Shown piece by piece: positions 1-15,404 of a DNA stretch of 15,404 nt. The position numbers were made by a program, and so were the translations under genes. Within the stretch, counting starts at the first letter, position 1. Each line of letters opens with the position of its first letter. Source of the DNA: Clostridia bacterium (GTDB lineage Bacteria; Bacillota; Clostridia; Christensenellales; Aristaeellaceae); contig JAZRWA010000020.1 in NCBI GenBank assembly GCA_045599485.1, positions 1-15,404 of the forward strand, in the 5' to 3' direction. Under the pieces are notes generated by a model that saw only the letters and a program-made list of their open reading frames with translations, did no database searches and had not been told where the DNA came from.

Positions 1-748
1 CGGTGACCATCCTGTTGTGCTTCCTGCCTTGGATACTGACTTTAACGAATAGTTTTTGCGCCGTATGCACCCATCCGCAAAGCTGCATCACCGGCAAAAG
101 ACAAGCGTGACCCGCCTGGCGCACGAGACGGCTTTGAAGGAAGAGGAGGACGAGACCGCCGATACCAAGCGCCGTCCCCTGGAGCTGTCCCGCGCCCTGC
201 CCCCGCTGCCCGACTTTATGAAAAAGGAATCCGGCCTATCCGCCGCTGACCGCGGCACCGCCATGCACCGCGTGCTGGGGCTGCTGGACCTGAGCAAGGT
301 CCGGGACATTGCCTCCCTTTCCGTCCTCGATCAGACCGCGCCCATCCGGGCCGAGCTTGAACGGATGCTGTCCCTGGGGCTGTTGACCCAGCCGGAGTAC
401 GATGCCCTGCAAAGTCATCAGATCGCCGCCTTCCTGCTCTCGCCCCTTGGTCAGCGCATGCTGCACTCGCCGTAGGTGCACCGCGAGTGGCCCTTCTATA
501 TGATGCCGGAGGATATGCTCATTCAGGGGGTCATCGACCTGTGCTTCTGGGAGGGGGACGGCTGGGTATTGGCGGATTACAAGACCGACCGCTGTGACGG
601 GGCGGAGCTGTATCGCCGCTATGCCGAGCAGCTGCGCTGGTACGGACGCGCGCTTTCCACCATCACCTGGCTGCCGGTCAGGGAATTGTGGCTGTTTTCC
701 CTTCGCAGCGGCAAGGCCATTGCCGTGGAAGGCTTTGCCGACCCTTGA
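1..748 (+). CDS. addA: AddA-type ATP-dependent helicase/nuclease subunit A, C-terminal RecB-family nuclease domain. The 5' end lies outside the window. One reading frame is interrupted by an in-frame TAG at 473-475.
   Basis: Track ORFs 56-475 and 476-748 are the same frame (both coordinates = 2 mod 3), separated only by TAG 473-475. The upstream part carries SAADRGTAMHRVL. The downstream part carries REWPF and VIDLCFWEGDGWVLADYKTDR, a PD-(D/E)XK / DYKTD-type motif typical of the AddA C-terminus. The gene ends at TGA 746-748. Frame assignment for nt 1-55 is uncertain: there is a further TAG at 50-52 in this frame. Confidence 0.7.
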
Positions 749-827: not shown

Positions 828-1847
828 ATGAGCAAAAAAGACGAACCCAAGCGCGTCGACATTGGCGGTCAGGCCGTCCTGGAAGGCGTCATGATGCGCT
901 CTCCCGAGTGGGTCGCCCTGGCGGTGCGCCGTCCCGACGGCTCCATCGTCATGAAGCGCGACCCCTGGGTCGCCCCCGCCAAGAAGCACAAGTGGATGGG
1001 GCTGCCCTTTATCCGCGGTGCCGTCAGCATGGCCATGATGCTCACCGTGGGCATGAAAACGCTGTCCGACAGTGCCAAGATGAGCGGACAGGAGGAGGAA
1101 GAGCCCTCCAAATTCGAAAAATGGCTGTCCCAGAAGCTGGGCAAGAGCATTGAGACCGTGGTCATGGCGGTCGCCGCCGTGCTGGCGGTGGTACTGAGCG
1201 TGGGGCTGTTTGTGCTCCTTCCCAACGCCATCATCAAGCTGTTCCCCGATTCGGGCTCCAGCGGCATGCTGCTGATGAAAAACCTCATCACCGGTCTGGT
1301 ACGCACCGTCATTCTGGTGGGCTACATGATGCTGTGCCGCCGCATTCCCGATATGCTGCGCACCTTCCGCTATCACGGCGCCGAGCACAAAACGGTATAC
1401 TGCAACGAGCACAACCTTGAATTGACGCCCGAAAACGCGCAGCAGTTTACCACCCTGCACCCCCGCTGCGGCACCAGCTTTATCCTCATCACCTTCATTC
1501 TTTCCATCATTTTCTACAGCATCATTGATGTTCTGGTGCTAATTCTTACCGGATACAACATGGGTAACAGCTACCTGCTGCGTGTATTGAGCCGCATCGT
1601 GCTGCTGCCCCTGGTGGCGGGCATCAGCTATGAGGCGCTGTTCTTCCTCGCGCATCACGAGGGCAAGGCCTGCGACATCCTGCGCAAGCCGGGCATGCAG
1701 CTGCAGCGTCTGACCACGGCGGAGCCCGATGCCGCCATGCTGGAAGTCGCCATTGCCGCCATGAAGGCCGCCAAGGGCGAACCCATGGAAGGCGAAGTCA
1801 CCCCCGAGGGCTACGTCATCGTGTCCCCGGCAAAGGAGAACGCATGA
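828..1847 (+). CDS. DUF1385 (YqhQ-like) membrane protein
   Basis: Motifs GGQAVLEGVMMR and YHGAEHK, several hydrophobic helices and high GC3 codon bias. ATG 828 is preceded by GGAAAGGAA (813-821). The track ORF starts earlier at 804, but 828 has the RBS. The TGA stop overlaps the prmC start (ATGA 1844-1847). Confidence 0.85.
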   Translation: MSKKDEPKRVDIGGQAVLEGVMMRSPEWVALAVRRPDGSIVMKRDPWVAPAKKHKWMGLPFIRGAVSMAMMLTVGMKTLSDSAKMSGQEEEEPSKFEKWLSQKLGKSIETVVMAVAAVLAVVLSVGLFVLLPNAIIKLFPDSGSSGMLLMKNLITGLVRTVILVGYMMLCRRIPDMLRTFRYHGAEHKTVYCNEHNLELTPENAQQFTTLHPRCGTSFILITFILSIIFYSIIDVLVLILTGYNMGNSYLLRVLSRIVLLPLVAGISYEALFFLAHHEGKACDILRKPGMQLQRLTTAEPDAAMLEVAIAAMKAAKGEPMEGEVTPEGYVIVSPAKENA

Positions 1848-2674
1848 CTATCAAGCAAGCGCTGCGCCTTGGTACGCAGGCACTGGAAGCCGCTTCCGTG
1901 CCCGATGCCGCCTGGGACGCGGCGCTTCTTCTTGCCCACGTGACCTCAAAGCCCGCGCTCTGGCTGCGGGCAAACGGCTTTGAGGAGCTGGGAAGCCCCC
2001 TTTATGAGCAATTTGACGCGCTCATCGCCCGCCGCGCCGCGCGGGAACCGCTGCAGTACATTCTGGGTTCGGTGGCTTTTGAAGGCGTGGAAATTGCCGT
2101 ATCGCCCGATGCCCTGATCCCCCGCATGGATACCGAGGTGCTGTTTGAGCGGACGGCGCTGCGGCTGCGCGGCACCGAAAAGGTGCTTGATCTTTGCACC
2201 GGCACGGGCGTGCTCGCCATCGCGCTCAAGCACAGGTTCCCATCCCTCACGGTCTTTGCCGCGGATAAAAGCGATGCGGCGCTGGCGCTGGCGCAGATCA
2301 ACGCGCTGCGCAATCAAACCGCCGTTCATTTTCGTCAGGGCGATCTGTTTGAGGCGGTGGGGGAGGAACGTTTTGACCTCATTCTTTCCAACCCGCCCTA
2401 CATTTGCGCCGCGGATATGCGGACCCTGCAGGAGGAAGTGCTTCGGGAGCCGCGCATGGCGCTCTTTGGCGGCGAGGACGGGCTGGATTTTTACCGGCGC
2501 ATTGTCGCAGAAGCCCCCAACCACCTCGTGCCCGGCGGCGCTTTGCTGTTTGAGATCGCCTGCTCGCAGGCGGCCGATGTTTCCGCCCTGATGGCTTCTC
2601 ATTTTGATGCCATCACCGTCACCCGCGACCTTTCCGGTCTGGACCGCTGCGTCGAAGGGACGCTGCGGGGATAA
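1844..2674 (+). CDS. prmC: Peptide chain release factor N5-glutamine methyltransferase (PrmC/HemK)
   Basis: SAM-binding VLDLCTGTGVLA, catalytic NPPY (ILSNPPYI), REPRMAL/GGEDGL motif and LEPLQYILG-like REPLQYILG. Translationally coupled to the upstream gene. Stop TAA 2672-2674. Confidence 0.9.
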   Translation: MTIKQALRLGTQALEAASVPDAAWDAALLLAHVTSKPALWLRANGFEELGSPLYEQFDALIARRAAREPLQYILGSVAFEGVEIAVSPDALIPRMDTEVLFERTALRLRGTEKVLDLCTGTGVLAIALKHRFPSLTVFAADKSDAALALAQINALRNQTAVHFRQGDLFEAVGEERFDLILSNPPYICAADMRTLQEEVLREPRMALFGGEDGLDFYRRIVAEAPNHLVPGGALLFEIACSQAADVSALMASHFDAITVTRDLSGLDRCVEGTLRG

Positions 2675-2838: not shown

Positions 2839-2937
2839 TTTAGCATAACATCATAACACTCTTACTTCGGTGTCAGATGCTTTCTTCAAAGCAAAAAACG
2901 TATTGCATGCATATCCAGTAAAGGATTGGTGAAAAAA

Positions 2938-3171
2938 GTGAGCAAGATAATTGAAGCTGACATTTTATCAGAAGGCAGAAAGAGAATAAAAATTACACTA
3001 ATAAATGATGAAGTGATTTATGGTGTATCAATGGGAATTATTCCTGCTGTTGATAACGAAGGAGAATAGCTTGATTATGATGTGCTTGTTTTTGATGCGT
3101 ATTCTCCGAATTCATATTTCAAACTGACAGATGAAATGATCAAAAGTATTGAACAAGTGAATAGTATCTAA
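2938..3171 (+). CDS. Small hypothetical protein (about 77 codons) in a low-GC island, with an in-frame TAG at 3067-3069
   Basis: GTG 2938 (alternatives TTG 2926 or GTG 2929), with AAGGA at 2921-2925. Translation: VSKIIEADILSEGRKRIKITLINDEVIYGVSMGIIPAVDNEGE-TAG-LDYDVLVFDAYSPNSYFKLTDEMIKSIEQVNSI-TAA. The frame stays open for 33 more codons after the TAG in AT-rich DNA, and a strong terminator follows. No family recognised. Confidence 0.35.
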
Positions 3172-3198
3172 CATATAGCGTTTTTGTTTATGAAAAAG

Positions 3199-3223
3199 GC
3201 ACTGATCACAATCAGTGCTTTTT
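3199..3223. terminator. Rho-independent terminator, bidirectional in appearance
   Basis: GCACTGAT (3199-3206), loop CACA, ATCAGTGC (3211-3218), then TTTTT (3219-3223). AAAAA precedes it at 3193-3197. It sits 28 nt after the small-ORF stop. Confidence 0.6.
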
Positions 3224-3274
3224 ATCAAGAGTAACTGTTCAATATAGCAGTAACGGTATTCATCAGTAAAATAA

Positions 3275-3326
3275 CACCCTTGTCCTGATGTCAGAAACCT
3301 TTCATCAGGGCAAGGGTGCATTTTTT
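3275..3326. repeat. Type-2 hairpin repeat (ATAACACCCTTG... family), terminator-like
   Basis: CACCCTTGTCCTGATG (3275-3290) pairs with CATCAGGGCAAGGGTG (3303-3318) with one T:G pair, followed by CATTTTTT. Related copies at 11277-11316, 13363-13405 and 14705-14747. Confidence 0.75.
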
Positions 3327-3338
3327 CATTTAAAGAAC

Positions 3339-3396
3339 CGCTTTTTCGCGGAGGGCTTGGGAACCGCCCTTTTGGACTTCAAAAAGGGGGTTCCCA
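3339..3396 (-). repeat. Type-1 structured repeat, copy C1 (inverted orientation)
   Basis: Inverted tail CGCTTTTTCGCGGAGGGC (3339-3356), then hairpin TTGGGAACCGCCCTTTTGG-ACTT-CAAAAAGGGGGTTCCCA (3357-3396). Very similar to 14769-14828. It lies 52 nt downstream of the minus-strand hydrolase stop. Confidence 0.85.
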
Positions 3397-3448
3397 TATC
3401 CTTTTCCGTCTCGTCTTCAGGGCGGGGGATCTCGCCCTGGTTCAGCGA

Positions 3449-4750
3449 TTACTGGGCGGCGCTGTGGCGGATGGTCATGCCGCGGGGAGCGGTATAGACG
3501 GTCTCAAAGCCCTTCCAGTAGTTGACACCGTAGATGCAGTTGGCGCCGACGGGCTCCAGCACATCCAGGTATTCCATCTTTTCGGTCTCGCCCTTCAGCT
3601 TGGCATCCAGGAAAGCGGTGATGAAGTGATCGGTATAGCCGTTCACATTCCACAGATCCCAGATAACGTCGCCCCAGCGGCGCATGTCAGCCAGGGAGCG
3701 ATCCTGCACATCGACGGGCACGGGGTTGGTGATGATGCTGTGATCCAGCATATCGAAGGTCACAAAGTAACGATCGGTATTGACGGTCTTGGCATACATA
3801 TCCAGCACCTGGGCATGGGGCACGATGGTGTCGTAGGTGCCCTGCATCCACAGGGTGGGGGTGTCGATGTTCACAAAGCTGGACTCGTCAAACATGGGCT
3901 GACCCCAGGGGGCGCACAGCACGGCAGCGCTCAGGCGCTTGTCGCCGACGTAGTCTTCAGCTTCGAGCAGCAGGTCTTCATAAGCGGCGATGCGGGCATC
4001 GGCAGCGATGGCGTCCTTGCTCAGCTTGGCACCCAGGGTGCGCAGCAGGCCGTAACCGCCGAAGCTGTAGCCGATCATACCGACGCATTCAGGCTTGAGC
4101 ATGCCGGCCAGGAAGCCTTCGGCATTCAGGCCCTCGAGGGCGTCGATGGTGTGGCGCTGGTCCAGCGTACGGTTCATGATGGCGCTGATCCAGGCGATGT
4201 CGGGGTTGAAGGCGGACACGCCGGTATCGGTGTGCTCCAGAGCCAGAACCACATAGCCCTTGGTGGCCAGGTTCTCGCCCAGGTGGCTCATCAGGTAGCG
4301 GCTGCCGGGATAGCCGTGGGTCACGATGACCACGGGATAGGGACCATCAGCCAGATAGGGATCGGCGTCACGCATGGCGCGGCCCACGAAATCAAAGGCT
4401 TCCAGGTCGTTGGTGTCGCTGCGGCCCATGTGATCGGTGTAGGTGGACAGCTGCACGGCGCCTTCGGCGACCACAGCGGGATACCACACTTCCACGGTCA
4501 GCACGCGGTCATGCAGGGGACGGGGATTTTCGGCGGTAATGGCGGCCAGGTCGACCTGGTCGGGGGTCACGATCTCAATGGTGCGCACGCCGATGGCGTA
4601 CTCGCCGCGCTTGGCCAGCGCGGGGGAGGAGGCGATCGGGTCACCGATCACAGAGCCGACGGGATAGCCTTCTTCGTACACCAGCGTATCGGCGACGGCC
4701 GCGGAGAACAGCATCACAAGGGCGAACAGGATAGCAAGAATTCGCTTCAT
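3449..4750 (-). CDS. Secreted alpha/beta hydrolase (dienelactone hydrolase / PAF-acetylhydrolase-like esterase)
   Basis: 433-aa ORF. N-terminal signal peptide MKRILAILFALVMLFSAAVA, nucleophile elbow GYSFGG (GxSxG), VTHGYPG oxyanion-type region, and later QGTYDT (Asp) and LDHS (His) candidates. RBS GAAGGAGAA on the minus strand (4762-4770). Stop TAA 3449-3451. Confidence 0.85.
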   Translation of the reverse strand: MKRILAILFALVMLFSAAVADTLVYEEGYPVGSVIGDPIASSPALAKRGEYAIGVRTIEIVTPDQVDLAAITAENPRPLHDRVLTVEVWYPAVVAEGAVQLSTYTDHMGRSDTNDLEAFDFVGRAMRDADPYLADGPYPVVIVTHGYPGSRYLMSHLGENLATKGYVVLALEHTDTGVSAFNPDIAWISAIMNRTLDQRHTIDALEGLNAEGFLAGMLKPECVGMIGYSFGGYGLLRTLGAKLSKDAIAADARIAAYEDLLLEAEDYVGDKRLSAAVLCAPWGQPMFDESSFVNIDTPTLWMQGTYDTIVPHAQVLDMYAKTVNTDRYFVTFDMLDHSIITNPVPVDVQDRSLADMRRWGDVIWDLWNVNGYTDHFITAFLDAKLKGETEKMEYLDVLEPVGANCIYGVNYWKGFETVYTAPRGMTIRHSAAQ

Positions 4751-4983
4751 GGTTTTTTGTTTTCTCCTTCTTCATTTTAATGGAACGGGGGAAGAGTATC
4801 AACAAGCCTCCTCCCGCGGCAGCAGCCGACGGTTTCAAGGCGGTTTTTGCGGAAATGCGCACAGAATCGATCCCCTTTCCATGCTGTGCATTCCGCGGTC
4901 TTCCGTCTGTTTTTCCGTTTCTTTCTCTGCCGGGGGGCTGCGTGTTTCTGTTTCTGCCGGACAGGCGCGTCCGGTTTTGCCGA

Positions 4984-5012
4984 TTGCTTTTTCAACGCAC
5001 CTTGCGTATAAT
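4984..5012 (+). promoter_or_regulatory. Candidate sigma-A promoter for the 5136 gene
   Basis: TTGCTT (4984-4989), 17-nt spacer, TATAAT (5007-5012). Confidence 0.4.
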
Positions 5013-5135
5013 GAAAATACTCACGCTGCGTTCATTTACACCATCGGGTCATTTGCTTTCCATATTATACAATTTTAAATGTTTTGTGTCAACAATATTC
5101 TTTACATTTCAAATCTTTTTGTAAGGAGTTCTCCC

Positions 5136-6578
5136 ATGAAAAAGATATTGTCCTTCCTCATCGCCCTGCTGCTGCTTTTTTCCTGCGCCGGCGCGGATTC
5201 CCTCATCTACGGCAGCGGCACCTGGGAATGCCCGTCCTGCGGCAGCCTCAACTGCGGTCAGCACTGCGGTGCCTGCGGCGCCCCCATCCCGCTGTGGCAG
5301 TGCCCTGCCTGCAGCGGCTTCATGACCTCGCCCTACTGCGTCAACTGCGGCATGGAAAAATACTATTCCCTCGGCACCGCCGCGCTGGCGGTGAGCGATT
5401 TTGAAGCCGCCATCGGTTATCTGGAATCGTCCCGCAGCCCCGAAGCCTGGGACGCGCTGGCCGGGGCGTGGGTTCAGGCGGCCCGAAGCTTCGAATATGA
5501 CCACGACTATGAGAATGCCCTTTATTGCTATCAGAATGCCGAAGTCTACGGCGCGGATGTTTCCGACAAAGTCTCCCACTGCAGCTACCAGCTGGCCACC
5601 GTGCTGTACCGGGAAGGCGATTATCCGGCCGCCATGGAGCTGCTGGATTCCCTCGGTGATTACAGGGACAGTGCCGACGCTGCCCGTGATTGCCGCTATC
5701 AGCAGGCCCTTTTATAGGAAGAAAACGGCCGGTTCGCCGAGGCGGCCGCCCTTTACGCGCAGATTCCGGGGTACAAGGACAGCGACAGCCGCTATCGTAC
5801 GCTCACCTGCGCGCTGGCGTCCGAATGCTTTGAAAACGGTCAGTACGACGAAGCCGCCGCGCTCTACGGCGAATTTGAATACGATGATGACTGCATGTCC
5901 CAGCGCACGGAGGCGCTTCGCCGCAGCGACCTGGTCAAACGCTTCACCCTCCAATGCTGCCTCCGCGTGGCAGATGCCGACGGCGCAATTGCCTACCGAT
6001 ACGGCTCCGCCACCGCGTATCTTGATGACCTGAACGAAGGCGATTCCCTGCAGCTGCTCCTGGCGCTGTCGGGGGCAGCTTCCGCTTCCGCGGATGTGCA
6101 GCTGCGCTGGAACGGCGGCGAATTACAGACCGCGGCGCTCTCCGCGTCTGAATTCGAACAGGCCGAATTTGTTGTCTCCCTCCCCGCCGAGGCGGGCACC
6201 TTCCCCTTTGAGGTCTTTGTCGGCGGTGTTAAGTTCAAGGAAGATACCGCCGAGATCCTGCCCTCGGGCGGTCATCGTCCCAGGGCGGTGAGATCGGAAA
6301 GTACCCGCACCGCTTCCGCCTCCGCCAATGGCTTTATGGGCCCCGTGTATGTCAAAATCACCGTAACTGACAGCAACACCCTCAGCTCCATCGTCATCGG
6401 CGATCACCGCTTCGAGGAGATCCTCGGCAGCAAGGTGCTGGAGGAGAGTTATCAGCAGCAGTTCATCGGCAAATCGCTGCCGCTTGGCCCGAATGATGTG
6501 GACGCCTGCGCCGGCGCGACCATCACCTCCGCCGCCGTGGTGGAGGCCGTCAACGCCGCCTTTGCCTCGCTTCCGTAA
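5136..6578 (+). CDS. Putative lipoprotein with double zinc ribbon, TPR-like repeats and a C-terminal FMN-binding (FMN_bind) domain. The frame contains an in-frame TAG at 5715-5717.
   Basis: RBS TAAGGAG (5122-5128), then ATG 5136. Signal and lipobox-like MKKILSFLIALLLLFSCAG, then CPSCG..CGACG..CPAC..CVNCG zinc ribbons. Repeats of the type YREGDYPAAMELL / ENGRFAEAAALY / ENGQYDEAAALY lie on both sides of the TAG. Track ORFs 5079-5717 and 5895-6578 are in the same frame, with no other stop between them. The C-terminus GFMGPVYVKITV...VDACAGATITSAAVVEAVNAA matches the FMN_bind flavinylation-type motif. Stop TAA. Confidence 0.7.
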
Positions 6579-6596
6579 AACCGATACCCTTCCCTC

Positions 6597-6633
6597 GGGG
6601 GACCGTTCCGTACGGTTCCCCGTTTCTTTTTTT
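6597..6633 (+). terminator. Rho-independent terminator
   Basis: GGGGACCGT..loop..ACGGTTCCCC (one bulge) followed by GTTTCTTTTTTT. It starts 19 nt after the 6578 stop. Confidence 0.6.
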
Positions 6634-7228: not shown

Positions 7229-8350
7229 ATGATCGACAGCAGAAAACACGTATGTCTGGCCACCGCCTCGGCGGGGCTGGAGGGCGTGGTCAAGCGGGAG
7301 CTTCTCTCCCTGGGCTTTGAAGACGCCAAGGCGGAGCTGGGCGCCGTGCGCTTCACCGCCGATTACGCGGGCATGATGAAGGCCTGTCTGTGGCTGGCGT
7401 GTGCCGACCGCGTACTCATTGTGGTCAGGGAAGGCCACGCCGAGACCTTTGAAGACCTTTTTCAGCTGGTATTGAGGGCGCCGTGGAGCGATTATCTGCC
7501 CAAGGATGCCGCCATCCCCGTGTCGGGGCGCTGCTCGCGCAGCAAGCTGATGTCCGTGCGCGACTGCCAGGCCATCACCAAAAAGGCCATTGTGGAGCAC
7601 ATGAAGCGCGCCTTCCACACGCAGCTTTTGCCCGAAACGGGCCCGCGCTTTCAGGTCGATGTGGCCCTGCACGGCGACACGGCGCGCTTGACGCTGGATG
7701 CCAGCGGCGAGGCGCTCAACCGCCGCGGCTACCGCACCTGGAACGGCGAAGCGCCCCTGCGCGAAACGCTGGCCGCCGCCATGGCGCGCCTGGCCTTCTG
7801 GGACAAGCGTCAGCCCCTGCACGATCCCTGCTGCGGCACGGGCACGCTGCTCATTGAAGCGGCCTTTTACGCCGCGCGCCGCGCGCCGGGGCTGAACCGC
7901 TCCTTTGACCTGGAGCGCTGGCCGTATGCCGACGCGCGCGAGCTTTCCCGCCTGCGGGAGGAGGCCGCCGCCGCCTTTGACCCGTCCCTCATTCCCCCCA
8001 TCACGGGCAGCGACCTCGATCCCAACGCTTTGGAGCTGTGCCACCGCCACATCCGTCAGGCGGGGCTGGAATCCTACATCCGCGTTTACCCTGCCGACCT
8101 GCGGCAGCTGACGGTTGAGGGGCCTTCGCCGTGCTTTATTGCCAACCCGCCCTACGGCGAGCGCCTTGGCGACAAAAAGCAATGCGAAGAATTGTACCGC
8201 GCCTTTAAGCCCCTCATGCTGCGCCACCCCGGCTGCAGCCTGAACCTGATCACCTCCCACCCCGGCTTTGAGCGCGTTGCCGGCCTGCGCAGCCGCAAAA
8301 AGACGCGCATGTACAACGGCCGCCTCGAGTGCGATTACATGAGGTTTTGA
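7229..8350 (+). CDS. THUMP-domain class I SAM-dependent RNA methyltransferase (COG0116, RlmL/YpsC-like)
   Basis: 373 aa. The N-terminus ATASAGLEGVVKRELLSLGF is typical of the family. SAM motif DPCCGTGTLLIEAA and catalytic NPPYGERLG. RBS GAAAGGA (7215-7221). Stop TGA. Confidence 0.85.
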   Translation: MIDSRKHVCLATASAGLEGVVKRELLSLGFEDAKAELGAVRFTADYAGMMKACLWLACADRVLIVVREGHAETFEDLFQLVLRAPWSDYLPKDAAIPVSGRCSRSKLMSVRDCQAITKKAIVEHMKRAFHTQLLPETGPRFQVDVALHGDTARLTLDASGEALNRRGYRTWNGEAPLRETLAAAMARLAFWDKRQPLHDPCCGTGTLLIEAAFYAARRAPGLNRSFDLERWPYADARELSRLREEAAAAFDPSLIPPITGSDLDPNALELCHRHIRQAGLESYIRVYPADLRQLTVEGPSPCFIANPPYGERLGDKKQCEELYRAFKPLMLRHPGCSLNLITSHPGFERVAGLRSRKKTRMYNGRLECDYMRF

Positions 8351-8374
8351 CGAAGGATTTTGACGAAAGGTTTT

Positions 8375-8439
8375 GCAGGGGAACCACGCTTTCCGAAGCC
8401 GGAAAGCATGGTTCCCCTGCACCCCTCCGAGAAAGGGCA
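8375..8439 (+). repeat. Type-1 structured repeat, copy A2
   Basis: Matches 2682-2746 exactly by eye across hairpin and tail. It starts 24 nt after the methyltransferase stop. A degenerate half-copy with the tail CCGAGAAATGGAAAACTTTATTGCACAGCAC follows at about 8507-8560. Confidence 0.9.
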
Positions 8440-8553
8440 AACTTTATTGCGCAGCACAGCACCCTTGCACGTACGAAAGTTGCTTTCAGCAAAACAAGGG
8501 GAGTTCAGCATGCTCTTCCCAAGCCTGCCCCGAGAAATGGAAAACTTTATTGC

Positions 8554-8586
8554 ACAGCACCCCAGCCCGGATGCTGTTTGTTTTTT
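8554..8586 (+). terminator. Possible Rho-independent terminator
   Basis: CAGCACCC / GGATGCTG stem with one mismatch, followed by TTTGTTTTTT. Confidence 0.4.
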
Positions 8587-8723
8587 CCCGCCGCTTTTCC
8601 CTTGTTCATGTGCCGTTTTTTACCAACACTGCCATTGACAGAAAGCCTCTTTTTGACATACAATAAGTGTATAATTCAGGAAAATTTCCGCCATATCGGC
8701 GGGTAAAAGAAAGGAAATCAAAC

Positions 8724-9893
8724 ATGCTTCAGAAAAAGTGTGTAGCCATGCTGTTGGCCGGCGGTCAGGGCAGCCGTTTGGGCGTGCTGACCAAGCATAT
8801 GGCCAAGCCCGCCGTTCCCTTCGGCGGCAAATACAGGATCATTGACTTCCCGCTGTCCAACTGCACCAACAGCGGCATTGACACCGTGGGTGTTCTGACG
8901 CAGTATCGTCCTCTGGAGCTGAATGCCTACATCGGCAACGGCGCCCCCTGGGATCTGGACGTCAACAACGGCGGCGTGTACGTGCTGCCCCCCTATCAGA
9001 CCGGCGCCACCGGCGAATGGTACAGCGGCACCGCCAACGCCATTTACCAGAACCTGGCCTTTATTGCCCAGTACAATCCCGAGCATGTGCTCATCCTGTC
9101 CGGTGACCACATCTACAAGATGGATTACAACGACATGCTGCGCCACCACATCGATACCGATGCCGACGTGACCATTGCCGTCCGTCAGGTGCCGTGGGAG
9201 GATGCCAGCCGTTTCGGCCTGATGAACACCGATGCCTCCGGCCGCATCATTGAGTTTGAAGAGAAGCCCAAGAACCCCAAGAGCAACAACGCCTCCATGG
9301 GTGTGTACATCTTCAAGTGGGAAAAGCTCCGCGATTATCTGATCGCCGACGAAGCCAACCCCAACAGCTCCAACGACTTTGGCAAAAACATCATCCCCAA
9401 CATGCTCAATGACGGCTGCATGATGAGCGCCTACAACTTCAACGATTACTGGAAGGACGTCGGCACCATCGACTCCCTGTGGGAGTCCAACATGGACCTG
9501 CTGACCGATCCCCTGCCCATTGACCTGTATGACCGCAAGTGGCGCGTGTATGCCCGCAACTTCGGCTCTCTGCCCCAGTACATCGCCGACGGCGCTGTCG
9601 TCAAGGATGCCCTGGTGACCGAAGGCTGCGAAGTGTACGGCACCGTGGAGCACAGCGTGCTGTCCACCGACGTCAAGGTGGAAGAAGGCGCTGTCGTCAA
9701 GGACAGCGTGATCCTGCCCGGCGCCACCATCAAAAAGGGCGCTGTGGTCATCCGCGCCATCGTGGCGGAAAAGGCCGTCATCGGTGAAAACGCCGTGGTC
9801 GGCGCCGAAGGCGGCGAGATCGCCGTGGTCGGCAATAATACCACTATTCCCGAGGGCGGCACCGTCGCTCCCGGCGAACAGGTTGGCGAGTAA
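8724..9893 (+). CDS. glgC: Glucose-1-phosphate adenylyltransferase (ADP-glucose pyrophosphorylase catalytic subunit)
   Basis: [40 protein letters not shown] and a C-terminal left-handed beta-helix repeat region. ATG 8724 with GAAAGGAAA upstream; the track ORF begins earlier at 8667. Stop TAA. Confidence 0.92.
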
Positions 9894-9908
9894 AGGAGGC
9901 GGCCGAAT

Positions 9909-11030
9909 ATGAACAATCTGATGGGTCTGATCTTCACCGGTGAAAACCTCGGTCATCTGGGCACCCTGACCGCCATGCGCGATGTGGCGGCTGTGCCTGT
10001 GGCCTCCCGTTACCGCATTGTGGACTTTATCATCTCCTCCATGGTCAACAGCGGCGCCCGCAACGTGGGCCTGATCGTGCAGCAGAACTACCACAGCCTG
10101 ATGGATCATCTGGGCACCGGCAAGGAATGGGACCTGCACGGCAAGCGCCGCAGCCTGACCATTCTGCCCCCCTACACCATGCCCGGCAGCATCGGCATGT
10201 ACAACGGCCTGCTGGACAGCATCAAGAGCAACATCCACTTCCTGCGCCGCTGCACCGAGCGCTATGTGGTGGTCACCGAAGCCAACATGCTCTACACCGC
10301 GCGCTTTGACGAAATGCTCGCCAAGCACGTGGAAACGAACGCTGACATCACCGTGATGTACAACAGCGATCCCGCCCTCATCCGCAGCAGCTGGGGCCGC
10401 TACATCAATGTGGCGGTGGACGGCCGTGTCACCGATCTGGAGATCAACCCCGTGCTGCCCAACAACTCCAAGAGCATGATGGGTGCCTTCATCATCCGCC
10501 GTGAGCTGCTCATTGAGCTGGTGGACCGCGCCATTGCCCGCGGCCAGTATCACTTCACCCGTGAGGTGCTCATCGACGCCATCCACAACGGCACCTACAA
10601 GGTGTACGGCTGGGAAAACACCAACAAGGTGTGGCGCATCGAAAACGTCAACGATTATTACAACGCCTCCATGGATCTGCTGTGCAGCGATTCCAAGGCG
10701 TCCCTGTTCAAGCCCGAGTGGCCCATCCTCACCCCTGTGCATGACGAAATGTCCTCCCGTCTGTGCCCCGGCTCCCAGGTCAAAAACAGCCTGATCGCCG
10801 ATGGCTGCAAGATCGAGGGCACCGTTGAAAACTGCGTCATCTTCCGCGGTGTGCAGATCAAAAAGGGTGCTGTGGTGCGCAACTGCGTCATCATGCAGGA
10901 CAGCATGATCATGGAAAACGCGCATCTGGAGGGCGTCATCCTGGACAAGGAGTGCATCGTGCGCGAGGAAGTGGTCATGATCTCTCCCAAGTCCTGCCCG
11001 AACGTGCTGCCCAAGGGCGCTGTCATCTAA
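9909..11030 (+). CDS. glgD: Glucose-1-phosphate adenylyltransferase subunit GlgD (non-catalytic)
   Basis: GlgC paralogue lacking the GGxGxRL signature (IFTGENLGHLGTLT), with RYRIVDF present. AGGAGG at 9894-9899. Lies directly downstream of glgC, as in Firmicutes glgCD pairs. Confidence 0.9.
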   Translation: MNNLMGLIFTGENLGHLGTLTAMRDVAAVPVASRYRIVDFIISSMVNSGARNVGLIVQQNYHSLMDHLGTGKEWDLHGKRRSLTILPPYTMPGSIGMYNGLLDSIKSNIHFLRRCTERYVVVTEANMLYTARFDEMLAKHVETNADITVMYNSDPALIRSSWGRYINVAVDGRVTDLEINPVLPNNSKSMMGAFIIRRELLIELVDRAIARGQYHFTREVLIDAIHNGTYKVYGWENTNKVWRIENVNDYYNASMDLLCSDSKASLFKPEWPILTPVHDEMSSRLCPGSQVKNSLIADGCKIEGTVENCVIFRGVQIKKGAVVRNCVIMQDSMIMENAHLEGVILDKECIVREEVVMISPKSCPNVLPKGAVI

Positions 11031-11042
11031 ATAACATTTTTT

Positions 11043-11100
11043 GCAGGGGAACCACGCTTTCAGGGCCTGAAAGCATGGTTCCCCTGCACCCTTCCAGAAA
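11043..11100 (+). repeat. Type-1 structured repeat, copy A3
   Basis: GCAGGGGAACCACGCTTTCAGGGCCTGAAAGCATGGTTCCCCTGC (11043-11087) plus a degenerate tail. It starts 12 nt after the glgD stop. Confidence 0.85.
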
Positions 11101-11116
11101 TAATAATCATCATTAA

Positions 11117-11160
11117 GGGGGAAAGGTACGCTTTTCAAAGCCGAAAAGCATGCCCGCCCC
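11117..11160 (+). repeat. Type-1 structured repeat, degenerate copy
   Basis: GGGGGAAAGGTACGCTTTTCAAAGCCGAAAAGCATGCCCGCCCC retains the central core, but the outer stem is decayed. Confidence 0.6.
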
Positions 11161-11183
11161 AAACCTCGATAATAAAGTAATAA

Positions 11184-11258
11184 GGGGGAGAGGTACGCTT
11201 TTCGAAGCCGAAAAGCATACCTCTCCCCCTTTGACCCCCTCACGGAGAAAAGGCGGTC
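11184..11258 (+). repeat. Type-1 structured repeat, copy B2
   Basis: The 46-nt hairpin is identical to 2764-2809. Tail TTTGACCCCCTCACGGAGAAAAGGCGGTC. Confidence 0.9.
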
Positions 11259-11276
11259 TATAACATACATCATAAC

Positions 11277-11325
11277 ACCCTTGCCTCGATGAGAATATCT
11301 TCATCAAAGCAAGGGTACTTTTTTA
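11277..11325 (+). terminator. Type-2 hairpin repeat, probably acting as the glgD terminator
   Basis: ACCCTTGCCTCGATGA / TCATCAAAGCAAGGGT stem (two C:A mismatches) followed by ACTTTTTT. Confidence 0.5.
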
Positions 11326-11334
11326 CAATTCAAT

Positions 11335-11362
11335 ACCCTTGCACTGGCATTCATGCAAGGGT
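11335..11362. repeat. Short type-2-like hairpin
   Basis: ACCCTTGCA (11335-11343), 10-nt loop, TGCAAGGGT (11354-11362). Confidence 0.5.
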
Positions 11363-11383
11363 GTAACGCACAGGATATCATAC

Positions 11384-11449
11384 TGCCCTTTCTCGGAGGG
11401 GATTAAAAGGGGAACCATGCTTTCCGGCTTCGGAAAGCGTGGTTCCCCT
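11384..11449 (-). repeat. Type-1 structured repeat, inverted copy
   Basis: Inverted tail TGCCCTTTCTCGGAGGGG (11384-11401), then hairpin AGGGGAACCATGCTTTCCGGCTTCGGAAAGCGTGGTTCCCCT (11408-11449). It lies 16 nt downstream of the minus-strand glgA stop. Confidence 0.9.
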
Positions 11450-11465
11450 TTGAAAATCGTCTTTC

Positions 11466-13154
11466 TTACTCCGCGTCGGCTTTCTTCGCGGCAGGCTTGC
11501 GGGTGCGCTTGGGCTTGGCAGGCGCTTCTTCCCCCTCCGCAGCGGGCTTCTTCGCAGCAGGCTTGCGGGTACGCTTGGGCTTCGCGGGCGCTTCCTCGGC
11601 CACGGCTTCGATCACGACCTCTTCCACCACGGGCGTTACGATCTCCTCGTCCGCGGGCGCTTCGGCCACCGCAGGCACGGCCGCTTCCGCCGCGTCCTCC
11701 GCCACGGGGGCGGGGGCGCTGGGCAGCATGCTGGCGTACAGGGACTCATACACCTCAGCGGAGTGCGTCCAGCTGTAATCGCCCTCCATGCCGCGCACCA
11801 TCAGGTTCTGCCACACATCGCTCTTCTCGCGGAAGTAGCGCACCGCACGGCGGATGGTAAACAGCATGTCATGCGCGTTGTAGTTGAAGAAGGTAAAGCC
11901 GTTGCCGGCGTTGTTGTAATGGTTGTAGCTCAGCACGGTATCACGCAGGCCGCCGGTCTCGCGCACGATGGGCACGCAGCCATAGCGCAGGGCGATCATC
12001 TGGGTGAGGCCGCAGGGCTCAAAGCGGCTGGGCATCAGCATCATGTCGGCACCGGCATAAATGCGGTGCGCCAGACCGTTATCCATCTGGAAGCGGGCGG
12101 CGACACGGCCGGGATACTGCTGCTCCGCCCAGCTGAAGAGGTTGACATAGCGGCTTTCGCCCATGCCCAGCACCACCAGCTGCACGTTTTCTTCCATGAT
12201 CTGGCCGATCACGTGATCCACCAGGTCCAGGCCCTTCTGGCTGGACAGGCGGGTGACCATGCCGATGACGGGCACGGAGGGATCGACGTTGAGCCCCAGC
12301 TCCTGCTGCAGGCTTTCCTTGCAGGCGGCACGGCCGCTCATATCGGCAAGGCTGTAATTGAAGGGGATCAGCGCGTCATCCGCGGGGTTCCAGGCGTTGA
12401 TGTCGATGCCGTTGAGCACGCCGGACAGGTTGGCACGGCGGGAACGGAGCAGGCCATCCATGCGCTCACCGTAATAGGTGGTCTGGATCTCCTCGGCATA
12501 GCTGGGGGACACGGTGGTGATCTCATCGGAATACACCAGCGCGGCCTTCATAAAGTTGGCGCAGCCGAAGCTGGCCAGCTTGTCCTCGGTGAAGTCGCCC
12601 TCGTTCAGGCTCAGCACATCGCGCAGCTGATCGATGCCGAACACGCCCTGATACTGCAGGTTGTGGATGGTGTACACCGTGCGGATGCCCTGATAGAAAT
12701 CCACACCGCTGTACTGGATCTTGAGCAGCGCGGGGATCATGCCAGCCTGCCAGTCATGGGCGTGCAGAATGTCGGGCTTGAAGCCCAGCAGGCGCATGCC
12801 CTCCAGCACAGCACGGTCAAAGAAGGCATAACGCTCGTACTCGTCGCCGCCCGCGCCGTACACATAATCACGCTTGAAGTAGTATTCGTTGTCGATAAAG
12901 TACCACTTGACGCCCTCGGCCTCGATCAGCTCGATGCCGCAGTACTGCTTTCTCCAGCCCAGAGTGACTTCAAAATTCATCACATGGGTCATGGCATCCT
13001 TGTACTTGTCGGGGATCATGCCGTACTTGGGGATCATGACCGCCACATCATTGCCGCGCTTGGCCAGCACGGGCGCCAGAGCGCCCACCACGTCCGCCAG
13101 ACCGCCGGTCTTGATGAAGGGCACGCATTCGCTCGCCGCAAACAAAATCTTCAT
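11466..13154 (-). CDS. glgA: Glycogen synthase (ADP-glucose type) with an unusual ~84-aa low-complexity C-terminal extension
   Basis: MKILFAASECVPFIKTGGLADV (KTGGL motif), then typical GT5 features. ATG at 13152-13154 is preceded by AAGGAG on the minus strand. The track ORF extends to 13343 through repeat DNA, and I reject that extension. Stop TAA 11466-11468. Confidence 0.92.
   Translation of the reverse strand: MKILFAASECVPFIKTGGLADVVGALAPVLAKRGNDVAVMIPKYGMIPDKYKDAMTHVMNFEVTLGWRKQYCGIELIEAEGVKWYFIDNEYYFKRDYVYGAGGDEYERYAFFDRAVLEGMRLLGFKPDILHAHDWQAGMIPALLKIQYSGVDFYQGIRTVYTIHNLQYQGVFGIDQLRDVLSLNEGDFTEDKLASFGCANFMKAALVYSDEITTVSPSYAEEIQTTYYGERMDGLLRSRRANLSGVLNGIDINAWNPADDALIPFNYSLADMSGRAACKESLQQELGLNVDPSVPVIGMVTRLSSQKGLDLVDHVIGQIMEENVQLVVLGMGESRYVNLFSWAEQQYPGRVAARFQMDNGLAHRIYAGADMMLMPSRFEPCGLTQMIALRYGCVPIVRETGGLRDTVLSYNHYNNAGNGFTFFNYNAHDMLFTIRRAVRYFREKSDVWQNLMVRGMEGDYSWTHSAEVYESLYASMLPSAPAPVAEDAAEAAVPAVAEAPADEEIVTPVVEEVVIEAVAEEAPAKPKRTRKPAAKKPAAEGEEAPAKPKRTRKPAAKKADAE
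11481..11598 (-). repeat. 66-nt-period tandem duplication inside the glgA 3' end
   Basis: 11481-11532 and 11547-11598 are near-identical. Each encodes EEAPAKPKRTRKPAAKK. Confidence 0.85.
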
Positions 13155-13224
13155 ATGGGTAATTCTCCTTAAAATAGAATGAATTATGATATTACAACAT
13201 CGGTTTTCACACAAAACCAGCTTC

Positions 13225-13279: not shown

Positions 13280-13486
13280 GGGGAGGGTACGCTTTTCGTG
13301 CCGAAAAGCATGCCCTCCCCCAACCCCTCCTGAGAAAAGGCAATCATGATCATACAGCATAACACCCCTGCTCCGATGACAGATTTCTTCATCCAAAGCA
13401 AGGGTACAATTATTTGATGAAATGATTGCTTTTTCTCGGAAGGTTTGGAAACCCTGCTTTTTGGCTTCAAAAAGCGTGGTTTCCAA
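13280..13486. repeat. Composite MITE-like element: type-1 hairpin + tail, central type-2 hairpin, inverted tail + type-1 hairpin
   Basis: Left hairpin 13280-13320, tail CAACCCCTCCTGAGAAAAGGCA 13321-13342. CATAACACCCC and the type-2 hairpin at 13363-13405. Inverted tail TGCTTTTTCTCGGAAGGT at 13428-13445, right hairpin TTGGAAACC...GGTTTCCAA at 13445-13486. No ORF. Confidence 0.75.
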
Positions 13487-13499
13487 GAACCCCCGTCCG

Positions 13500-14618
13500 T
13501 TATTCTAATAGCGGCTCGAGCACCGTGTTCATCACGTCCATGCCGCGCTGAGAAAGAAGAAGATGGGAACGTGTCAGCAAAGCACGCCCGTCCGCGATGG
13601 CGGGGGCCAGGGCGGCGCCGTAGCGTGTCATCAGATCCACACCGTAGCGCTGTTTAAATTCTGCAAGCGCAATGCCCTGCGTCAGCCGCATCCCCAGCAT
13701 CACGGCCTCAAACAGCATTTCGTCCGGGCCGATGTGCTCTGTCTCGCCCGCCTCGCCGCCAAGGTACGCGTCCAGCGTTTGCGGGTTGGTGCGGCGGTCA
13801 TTCTGCCACAGGGAGGCCGCGGCGCAGCCGAAGCCCAGGTAATCCTCGCGTTTCCAGCAGTTCACGTTGTGCCGGCATTCCTCGCCCGGCACGGCAAAAT
13901 TGCTGATCTCATACTGCAAAAGCCCATTTTCACGGAAGATACTGCGGCACAGCTCATACTGCGCGCGGTCCTCTTCATCGCCCGGCAGGGTCAGCCGTCC
14001 GTGTGTCAGATCATCATACAGCGGCGTGCCCTCCTACGGGATCAGCGCGTAGCAGCTGATGTGCTTTACGCCCAGCCCCATCACAAAGCGCGCGGTCTGT
14101 TCGGCGTCCCGCATCGTCATGCCGGGGAGTGCCAGCATCATATCGGCATTGAGCCGCTCAATGCCCGCCGTACGCACGATGGCCGCGGCGTTGACCGCGT
14201 CCTATACCGTATGGATGCGCCCGATGCTTTTGAGCAGCCGGTCGCTTGCGCTCTGCACGCCCATCGATACACGGTTGACGCCGCCTTCAAAAAGCGCGGC
14301 GGCTTTTTCCGCCGTGATGGTACCGGGGTTCATTTCGCTGGTCCATTCGGTGTTTTCCGCCAGAGGAAAGCTGTCCCGAACCGCCTGACACAGCCTGTAC
14401 AGCAGTTCTTCCGGCAGCAGCGTGGGCGTGCCTCCGCCAAAGAACACCGTGTCGGCCATGGGATGCCCCAGCGCGTCCGACCGGCGGCGCATTTCCTCCG
14501 CCACCGCGTCCACATAGCGCTGCATATCGTTTTCCCGCCCCGCCCAGCTGGCAAAGTCGCAGTAGCGGCACTTGCTTTTGCAAAACGGCACATGCACGTA
14601 GATTCCCAGATGCTTCAT
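13500..14618 (-). CDS. hemW: Radical SAM heme chaperone / oxygen-independent coproporphyrinogen-III oxidase-like protein (HemW/HemN family). The frame contains two in-frame TAG codons (14202-14204 and 14034-14036).
   Basis: MKHLGIYVHVPFCKSKCRYCDF (CxxxCxxC), FFGGGTP, NRVSMGVQS, GRIHTV-TAG-DAVNAAAIVRTAGIERLNADMMLALPG..., SCYALIP-TAG-EGTPLY..., YEISNFA...HNVNCW. Track ORFs 14202-14618 and 13500-13919 are in the same frame, and I translated the gap with no other stops. RBS GGAGGTG. Stop TAA 13500-13502. Confidence 0.8.
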
Positions 14619-14652: not shown

Positions 14653-14828
14653 CAGGGGAAACCACGCTTTCCGAGAAAGGGCAGTTTTTTTCCTTTCTGC
14701 ATAACACCATTGCTCTGATGACGGGTTTAGATATCAGGGCAATGGTGCTGTTTTATTTAAATAATGATTGCTTTTTCGCGGAGGGCTTGGGAACCGCCCT
14801 TTTTGGCCGCAAAAAGGGTGGTTCCCAA
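14653..14828. repeat. Composite MITE-like element with an internally deleted left arm
   Basis: Collapsed type-1 arm CAGGGGAAACCACGCTTTCCGAGAAAGGGCAG (14653-14684). CATAACACC plus type-2 hairpin at 14705-14747. Inverted tail TGCTTTTTCGCGGAGGGC at 14769-14786. Hairpin TTGGGAACCGCCCTTTTTGGCCGCAAAAAGGGTGGTTCCCAA at 14787-14828. Confidence 0.75.
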
Positions 14829-14867: not shown

Positions 14868-14897
14868 AGAAAAAATACCGTAAAGGAGCGTAAAACC

Positions 14898-15404
14898 ATG
14901 AAAAAGCTGATTTCCCTGCTGCTGGCGGCGCTGATGCTGCTTTCCCTGTGCGCTTCCGCTTTTGCGGAGGAGCCCGTGCTGGCCTCCACCAAGTCCCTGA
15001 CCGCGCTGCTGGACAGCCAGAACCTCAACTACACCTGCTACGGTCTGGATGATGACGGCGATGACCACATTTCCATCGGCGTATCCAACGACGATCTGAA
15101 CCTCAAGTACACCATGGAGCTGTTCTTCAGCGATGACCTGGAGGCCGCTTATGTATACGTCTGGTACCTGATCAGCTACAGTGCCGAAAATCAGTCTGCT
15201 GTGACCGCCCTGTGCAACGAGATCAATTCCGCCTTCCGCTATGCCACCTTTGTCGCCGATGACCGTGACAACACCGTGACCGTCAAGAACGCCGCCTTCC
15301 TGCGCAGCGTGGACGATGCCGGCGCCATCGTGTTTGACATGATGACCACCATGGCCAGCGTGATCGATGAAGTGTATCCCTACCTGGCCGAATACGCCAA
15401 CTGA
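14898..15404 (+). CDS. Small secreted hypothetical protein (possibly YbjN-like fold; family call weak)
   Basis: RBS AAAGGAG (14882-14888), then ATG 14898. Signal peptide MKKLISLLLAALMLLSLCASAFA, high GC3 bias, and the gene ends at TGA 15402-15404. The upstream part of track ORF 14649-15404 is repeat DNA. Confidence 0.75.
   Translation: MKKLISLLLAALMLLSLCASAFAEEPVLASTKSLTALLDSQNLNYTCYGLDDDGDDHISIGVSNDDLNLKYTMELFFSDDLEAAYVYVWYLISYSAENQSAVTALCNEINSAFRYATFVADDRDNTVTVKNAAFLRSVDDAGAIVFDMMTTMASVIDEVYPYLAEYAN

Follow-up and report, generated by a model that had tools for sequence, protein, structure and literature searches.

Why does an otherwise undamaged bacterial hemW carry two in-frame TAG codons, and how are these codons read? 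We approached this question through a 15,404-nt stretch of Clostridia bacterium DNA (the window, by which we mean that whole stretch) and through contigs of the same lineage from other samples. On comparative sequence grounds, UAG has very probably been reassigned from stop to glutamate (Glu) throughout this uncultured lineage, where it would serve as a rare synonym of GAG and GAA. Below, we describe the affected genes, the use of UAG as a terminator, the amino acid to which it corresponds and the explanations that compete with this reading, and then consider how such decoding could work and how it compares with known codes.

Two in-frame TAGs in an intact hemW

The gene and its two TAG codons are placed as follows.

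13500-14618, minus strand: hemW (radical SAM heme chaperone), 372 codons plus a TAA stop at 13500-13502, with two in-frame TAGs
14202-14204, minus strand ('cta' on the plus strand): TAG at hemW codon 139, in the context GRIHTV-TAG-DAVNAA
14034-14036, minus strand: TAG at hemW codon 195, in the context SCYALIP-TAG-EGTPLY

Translation of the minus strand gave a single frame with exactly two internal stops, both TAG, and no other damage, which reproduces the 372-codon frame, the coordinates and the peptide contexts of an initial annotation. The encoded protein has the CxxxCxxC motif at residues 13-20 (C13-x3-C17-x2-C20), its Pfam domains (Radical_SAM at residues 7-179 and HemN_C at 298-361) span both TAGs, and with Glu entered at both positions it scores 255.5 bits against the NCBIfam equivalog TIGR00539 (cutoff 205.4), placing it within that family. 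In an alignment with 120 intact homologues, all at most 64% identical, both TAGs fall in the columns where the initial annotation had put them. Its claim of a conserved Glu proved fully right for codon 195, where the column is invariant (Glu in 120/120 homologues, Gln in 0/120). The wider claim that the TAGs occupy Glu positions holds for codon 139 among close relatives, since GAG replaces the window's TAG in contigs L083 and L084 (listed below), including an 88%-identical relative, whereas distant homologues show Glu there by plurality only (53/120, with A 14, D 14, R 14 and Q 10), so that this column is not conserved. A sequence search of the PDB matched only NocN and HemN and was uninformative on the role of the Glu residues.

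Recurrence of the TAGs in other genes and strains

Relatives were found via PrmC, an N-terminal HemW fragment and 90% cluster members, yielding about 10 contigs of the same lineage from about six other samples or assemblies and a total of ~60 kb of lineage sequence. Where measured, they are 83-90% identical to the window at the nucleotide level, with dS of 0.4-0.6. The sources of these contigs are as follows.

L081: Logan SRR21151038
L083 and L087: ENA ERZ27247129
L084 and L088: Logan ERR6929691
L085: NCBI MAG GCA_024404275.1 ('Clostridia bacterium'), JAKSQG010000066.1
L086: Logan SRR17543910
L089: ENA ERZ27247126
L090: Logan SRR27361835

In a large protein collection, the window proteins matched only the window's own NCBI entry, and the accessions of the samples and assemblies drew no hits in the literature. 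A HemW scan of the JGI metagenomes returned no relatives, and the lineage seems to be absent from that collection.

Across the lineage, we counted 9 distinct TAG sites in hemW, addA, prmC and a lipoprotein gene, some shared among strains and others strain-specific. The pattern of TAG standing for Glu is thus found beyond hemW, in addA, in the prmC of relatives and in a lipoprotein gene, an extension that the initial annotation had missed. The corresponding features of the window are these.

2-748, plus strand: C-terminal part of addA, PD-(D/E)XK nuclease domain (Pfam PDDEXK_1), ending in TGA, with two in-frame TAGs
50-52, plus strand: TAG at addA codon 929 (full-length numbering), in the context DFNE-TAG-FLRRM
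473-475, plus strand: TAG at addA codon 1070 (full-length numbering), in the context SP-TAG-VHREW
509-511, plus strand: GAG at addA codon 1082, in the context MMPEDML
1844-2674, plus strand: prmC (release-factor glutamine methyltransferase), intact in the window, 263.6 bits to TIGR03534
5136-6578, plus strand: TPR/FMN_bind lipoprotein gene whose codon 213 (5715-5717) is an in-frame TAG

Some of these TAGs are retained over considerable divergence: the one at hemW codon 195 is kept in the window, L083 and L084 despite a dS of about 0.5, and the one at addA codon 929 occurs in the window, L085, L087 and L090, where the outgroup L082, at 52% identity, has GAG. Others come and go. At addA codon 1070, TAG in the window corresponds to GAG in L081, L085 and L087, in a column where Glu is the plurality residue (44/150), and at codon 1082 TAG is found in L081, L085, L086, L087 and L090, with GAG in the window and in outgroup L082. 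Two further sites carry TAG in L090, namely codon 818 (GAG in L085 and outgroup L082) and codon 959 (GAA in L085). Such TAG/GAG differences separate even strains that share 97% AddA identity. Codon 202 of prmC is GAG in the window (2447-2449) and GAA in L090; comparing the codons directly shows TAG in L081, L085 and L087, and for L088 a TAG is indicated by a 201-aa gene call. This column is again invariant, with Glu in 119/119 homologues and Gln in 0/119, so that two of the TAG sites, hemW 195 and prmC 202, lie on invariant Glu columns.

The lipoprotein TAG is the sole site without an obvious fit to Glu, and it has no orthologue comparator. The gene itself continues through it, with TPR families flanking the TAG on both sides, an FMN_bind domain at residues 418-495 and a high coding score on either side (0.43 and 0.55). 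The TAG sits in a repeated unit, YQQALL-TAG-EENGRF, within a repeat region at 5640-5800 whose neighbouring units read YQLATVLYREGDY and CALASECFENGQY; in the adjacent internal repeats, it stands opposite Leu/Cys rather than Glu by an ungapped comparison made by eye, which is a weak one.

A small ORF in a low-GC island was considered as an additional site and left doubtful, given that it has neither homologues nor a family match; it lies outside the 9 sites, and the terminator-like hairpin there comes after the TAA at 3171 and not after the TAG.

2938-3171, plus strand: doubtful small ORF, with an in-frame TAG at 3067-3069 in the context DNEGE-TAG-LDYD

In the relatives' contigs, public gene calls break AddA, PrmC and HemW at the TAGs. 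Under table 11, the AddA of L085 (3442-6924) is annotated as products of 928, 134 and 77 aa, the first of them labelled 'UvrD-helicase domain-containing protein' (MCQ2453943.1), and its PrmC (8020-8850) as products of 201 and 72 aa.

UAG as a terminator in the lineage and its outgroups

Besides hemW, addA, prmC and the TPR/FMN_bind lipoprotein gene, the window contains the following genes.

828-1847, plus strand: DUF1385 gene
3449-4750, minus strand: alpha/beta hydrolase
7229-8350, plus strand: THUMP RNA methyltransferase
8667-9893, plus strand: glgC
9909-11030, plus strand: glgD, with a TAA stop at 11028-11030
11466-13157, minus strand: glgA
14892-15404, plus strand: YbjN-like lipoprotein

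Opposite glgC and glgD, an 851-aa antisense ORF (8718-11273, minus strand) was rejected as spurious on account of its low-complexity composition and the strong Pfam hits of the plus-strand genes; at such GC content, the longest ORF need not be the gene.

Within the 11 window genes, in-frame TAGs number five, spread over three confirmed genes (two in addA, one in the lipoprotein gene and two in hemW), and in-frame TAA or TGA codons number zero. The same genes end in TAA (7/11) or TGA (4/11) and never in TAG (0/11), and every visible gene end on the relatives' contigs is likewise TAA or TGA. Lineage-wide, TAG closes none of ~14 distinct genes, against about 20% of glg gene ends in the outgroups, a difference that is marginal in so small a sample (P about 0.04).

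Evolutionarily, the closest GTDB species in a GlgC scan, at about 75% GlgC identity, are RUG12813 (uncultured Clostridiales) and Ca. Egerieenecus merdigallinarum, which NCBI taxonomy places in Eubacteriales incertae sedis. Synteny with the GTDB loci is limited to glgCDA, and we used them as standard-code outgroups only. In three of these loci (L001, L004 and L005), glgD ends in TAG at the exact aligned C-terminus, where the stop is TAA in the window and TGA in L087, and we found no internal coding TAGs in L001, L002 or L006, whose loci are of comparable GC. In L082 (JGI 3300020112), whose PrmC is 67% identical, 1770 codons contain no internal TAG, which says little by itself. Because the nearest outgroups at ~75% GlgC identity keep TAG as a stop and lack internal TAGs, the recoding would be restricted to a shallow clade, and it looks recent, with TAG and GAG still being exchanged from strain to strain.

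The codon is also rare. Among the 4046 codons of the window genes, TAG occurs 5 times, GAG 136 times and GAA 127 times (263 GAR codons), so that TAG amounts to 1.2 per 1000 codons, and the base after it is G at 4/5 of the solid window sites. Rarity of this kind, together with a possible effect of the following base, is what might be expected if RF1 were kept and a suppressor tRNA, possibly prophage-borne, read UAG as Glu incompletely or in a context-dependent manner. We consider such partial or ambiguous decoding unlikely, as the TAGs occupy invariant residues of housekeeping proteins and drift freely to and from GAG at 97% AddA identity, and as no gene end seen in the lineage is TAG. Reading of UAG at invariant residues and free TAG/GAG drift argue instead that decoding is near-neutral and efficient.

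The amino acid at the TAG sites

All eight sites for which a comparator is available point to Glu: the sister codon is GAG at six and GAA at one, and the eighth lies on an invariant Glu column. If TAG had arisen from any single-step precursor, GAG would account for 22.5% of the opportunities, and Glu at 8/8 sites would have a probability of about 7e-6. A Codetta-style likelihood calculated over six columns from distant homologues favoured Glu by +10.2 log-odds, the next best residues being Arg (-4.2) and Asp (-4.4). As observed, then, UAG behaves in this lineage as a near-neutral synonym of GAG and GAA and is unseen as a terminator.

Other residues have precedents: UAG is commonly reassigned to glutamine (Gln) in phages (code 15) and eukaryotes, it encodes pyrrolysine (Pyl) genome-wide in some archaea, and tRNAs with a CUA anticodon tend to be charged by GlnRS in E. 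coli. Translation of UAG as Gln, Pyl or a mixture is nonetheless very unlikely here, given that no sister codon at the TAG sites is CAG, CAA or a Lys codon, that Gln is missing from both invariant columns (0/120 and 0/119), and that the likelihood is strongly for Glu.

Selection downstream of the TAGs

In-frame stops are a classic mark of pseudogenes, and the fragmentation of these genes in public annotation, as with MCQ2453943.1, gives the same impression. However, selection on hemW is as strong after the TAGs as before them: when the window is compared with L083, codons 1-138 give a dN/dS of 0.23, codons 140-194 one of 0.18 and codons 196-372 one of 0.17, with no indels, which bears out the view of the initial annotation that the gene is otherwise intact and its decay improbable. 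Comparable values were obtained for the C-terminus of addA (0.08-0.10, window against L085, L087 and L081) and for prmC 3' of its TAG (0.26-0.33, no indels). That hemW, addA and prmC are pseudogenes produced by nonsense decay, perhaps with intact copies elsewhere, is therefore scarcely credible: dN/dS 3' of the TAGs (0.08-0.33) resembles that upstream, and no frameshift or indel has accumulated at a dS of about 0.5. Moreover, the in-frame stops of the lineage genes are TAG at 9/9 sites with no mix of nonsense types (P about 5e-3 if the types tracked mutational opportunity), the TAGs at hemW codon 195 and addA codon 929 are kept across diverged strains, the comparator codons are all Glu, and three separate housekeeping genes are hit. 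A sequencing or assembly artefact, for instance a systematic G-to-T error that turns GAG into TAG and would suit the fact that the changes are all G/T differences at GAG codons, has practically no chance of being the cause, because identical TAGs in independent projects and from different groups and assemblers (NCBI MAGs, ENA MEGAHIT contigs and Logan unitigs) exclude a consensus error, and only 5/141 GAG-or-TAG codons are hit, at positions conserved between strains.

Reassignment of UAG to Glu, by comparison, agrees with the features by which stop reassignments are recognized: several intact, conserved genes carry the codon, a single amino acid aligns with it, the sequence downstream is under purifying selection (dN/dS 0.17-0.33) and the pattern is confined to one clade.

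Repeats and rearrangements at the locus

The window also contains repeats. REP/MITE-like palindromic hairpins with 22-nt arms and a 4-nt loop (consensus TGCAGGGGAACCACGCTTTCCG-AAGC-CGGAAAGCATGGTTCCCCTGCA) lie just 3' of most of its genes, match no Rfam family and give rise to spurious ORF extensions. Their copies are located as follows.

2681-2728, 2762-2811, 8374-8421, 11042-11088 and 11113-11160: hairpin copies
11182-11231, 11403-11454, 13447-13484, 14655-14696 and 14787-14828: hairpin copies

Composite repeats comprise a 66-nt unit at 100% identity (2681-2746 and 8374-8439), an 85-nt unit at 93% (2763-2847 and 11183-11267) and a 116-nt family (3271-3386, 13359-13474 and 14701-14816). The arrangement of the genes differs from that of the outgroups as well: in L001-L007, glgC, glgD and glgA share a strand and run collinearly, whereas in the window (8667-13157) glgA is inverted, on the minus strand, directly downstream of hemW. 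As the hemW-glgA adjacency is also present in L083, the lineage carries this rearrangement of the glycogen cluster. GlgA itself ends in a tail of roughly 90 aa (11466-11740, minus strand) that is rich in Ala, Pro, Lys and Glu, lies outside the catalytic-domain matches and contains two tandem 66-nt copies (11469-11534 and 11535-11600, 83% identical), each of which encodes EEAPAKPKRTRKPAAKK. The segment that separates prmC from the THUMP gene varies among strains (2850-6600 in the window, 3260-4360 in L087): in the window it comprises a low-GC island (about 47% GC) with the small ORF at 2938-3171, the alpha/beta hydrolase gene and the TPR/FMN_bind lipoprotein gene, and L087 has one 186-aa gene instead.

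A possible decoding mechanism

Mechanistically, the fuller version of the proposal, in which complete reassignment of UAG to Glu in this GC-rich lineage of gut Clostridia was accompanied by loss of RF1 and acquisition of a dedicated tRNA-Glu(CUA), is in our estimate somewhat more probable than its negation. The decoder would be a tRNA with anticodon CUA on a tRNA-Glu body, one substitution (at position 36) away from the CUC anticodon that reads GAG, and it would be charged by GluRS. The indirect pathway to Gln is common in Clostridia, and we assume it for this lineage. In bacteria, C36 is an identity element for Glu, non-discriminating GluRS charges both tRNA-Glu (C36) and tRNA-Gln (G36), and amidation to Gln is set by the U1-A72 pair in the tRNA body rather than by the anticodon (PMC9976931). 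For an enzyme that already accepts C36 and G36, A36 may be a small step, and GatCAB would leave the charged tRNA-Glu(CUA) unamidated if G1-C72 were retained. Because amidation depends on U1-A72, a tRNA-Glu body with a CUA anticodon is expected to keep its Glu, in agreement with the alignments. Engineered tRNA-Glu(CUA) mostly receives Gln in E. coli, and charging of such a tRNA with Glu is therefore not trivial.

The tRNA was sought directly. ARAGORN detected no tRNA genes in any contig of the lineage, the window included (~60 kb), and scanning the window together with three of these contigs against Rfam produced no match. Candidates from a metagenome search with a DNA pattern for the anticodon arm and T-loop of tRNA-Glu(CUA) were rejected, 5/6 being tmRNA 3' ends and 1/6 an unrelated AT-rich sequence; the tmRNA matches (within L091-L096) are the 3' tRNA-like ends of tmRNAs on soil-type metagenome contigs.

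As for termination, RF1 would have been lost or would no longer compete, with UAA and UGA both recognized through RF2. That RF1 is absent or ineffective is argued by the efficient reading of UAG at invariant residues and by the free TAG/GAG drift between strains with 97% identical AddA. We also considered whether RF1 loss could be judged from the neighbourhood of prmC: the window has no prfA next to that gene, but neither has the 67% relative L082, which makes the local absence uninformative. The presence of prmC is equally silent on RF1, since PrmC also methylates RF2.

Relation to known codes

Known bacterial stop reassignments all concern UGA (Shulgina and Eddy 2021, PMC8629427), which was still called the only reassigned bacterial stop in May 2026 (10.64898/2026.05.03.722492). 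For about 2.7 million NCBI assemblies, a k-mer screen reported no bacterial TAG reassignment and ascribed sense calls for TAA and TAG to contamination (10.64898/2026.04.02.715157), and the gTranslate preprint, citing Kivenson et al. 2025, lists a genome-wide change of UAG for archaea only, to Pyl. UAG read as Glu in a bacterium thus appears to be unreported in the literature that we searched.

Among bacterial codes, tables 4 (UGA as Trp, Mycoplasmatales and others) and 25 (UGA as Gly, Absconditabacteria/Gracilibacteria) offer the nearest form, in that a clade-limited stop-to-sense change affects conserved genes and involves one amino acid. They differ in the codon (UGA rather than UAG), the amino acid (Trp or Gly rather than Glu) and the release factor at stake (RF2 rather than RF1), and many UGA cases are found in low-GC or reduced genomes, whereas the host here has about 58-60% GC and roughly 60 kb of the lineage gave no sign of genome reduction. 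The change of UAG to Glu itself has eukaryotic counterparts. Peritrich ciliates read UAR as Glu (table 30). In Blastocrithidia nonstop, UAG is read as Glu via cognate tRNA-Glu with matching anticodons (PMC12153298). These eukaryotic codes are nuclear, involve eRF1 and reassign UAA too; here only UAG is concerned and UAA is the main stop (7/11).

Phage code 15 shares with our case a sense TAG in gut-associated genomes, with a phage tRNA(CUA) as the decoder where ours would be its inferred equivalent, but it belongs to phages and specifies Gln; the present locus is chromosomal (addA, prmC, glgCDA and hemW) and its TAGs correspond to Glu, which sets it apart from code 15. Lastly, archaea with UAG as Pyl and Pyl-using Firmicutes likewise represent prokaryotes in which UAG has been lost as a dedicated stop. 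There, the residue is Pyl, whereas the TAGs described here coincide with Glu positions, invariant ones among them, rather than with those of Pyl or Lys, and no pyl genes were seen in ~60 kb of the lineage.

Implications

Practically, table 11 fragments the genes of such MAGs, with AddA in at least three pieces and PrmC and HemW in two or three, which lowers apparent genome quality and places truncated proteins in databases. If the reading is correct, this would be the first reassignment of UAG from stop to sense in Bacteria and would call for a new translation table. The lineage would then stand as a natural counterpart to the engineered RF1-free, amber-recoded E. coli, and its natural bacterial tRNA(CUA)/GluRS pair would be of interest to code engineering. 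Finally, because TAG and GAG swap in near-identical strains and standard-code outgroups are at hand, the lineage would provide a young, polymorphic system in which the capture of a stop codon could be studied.
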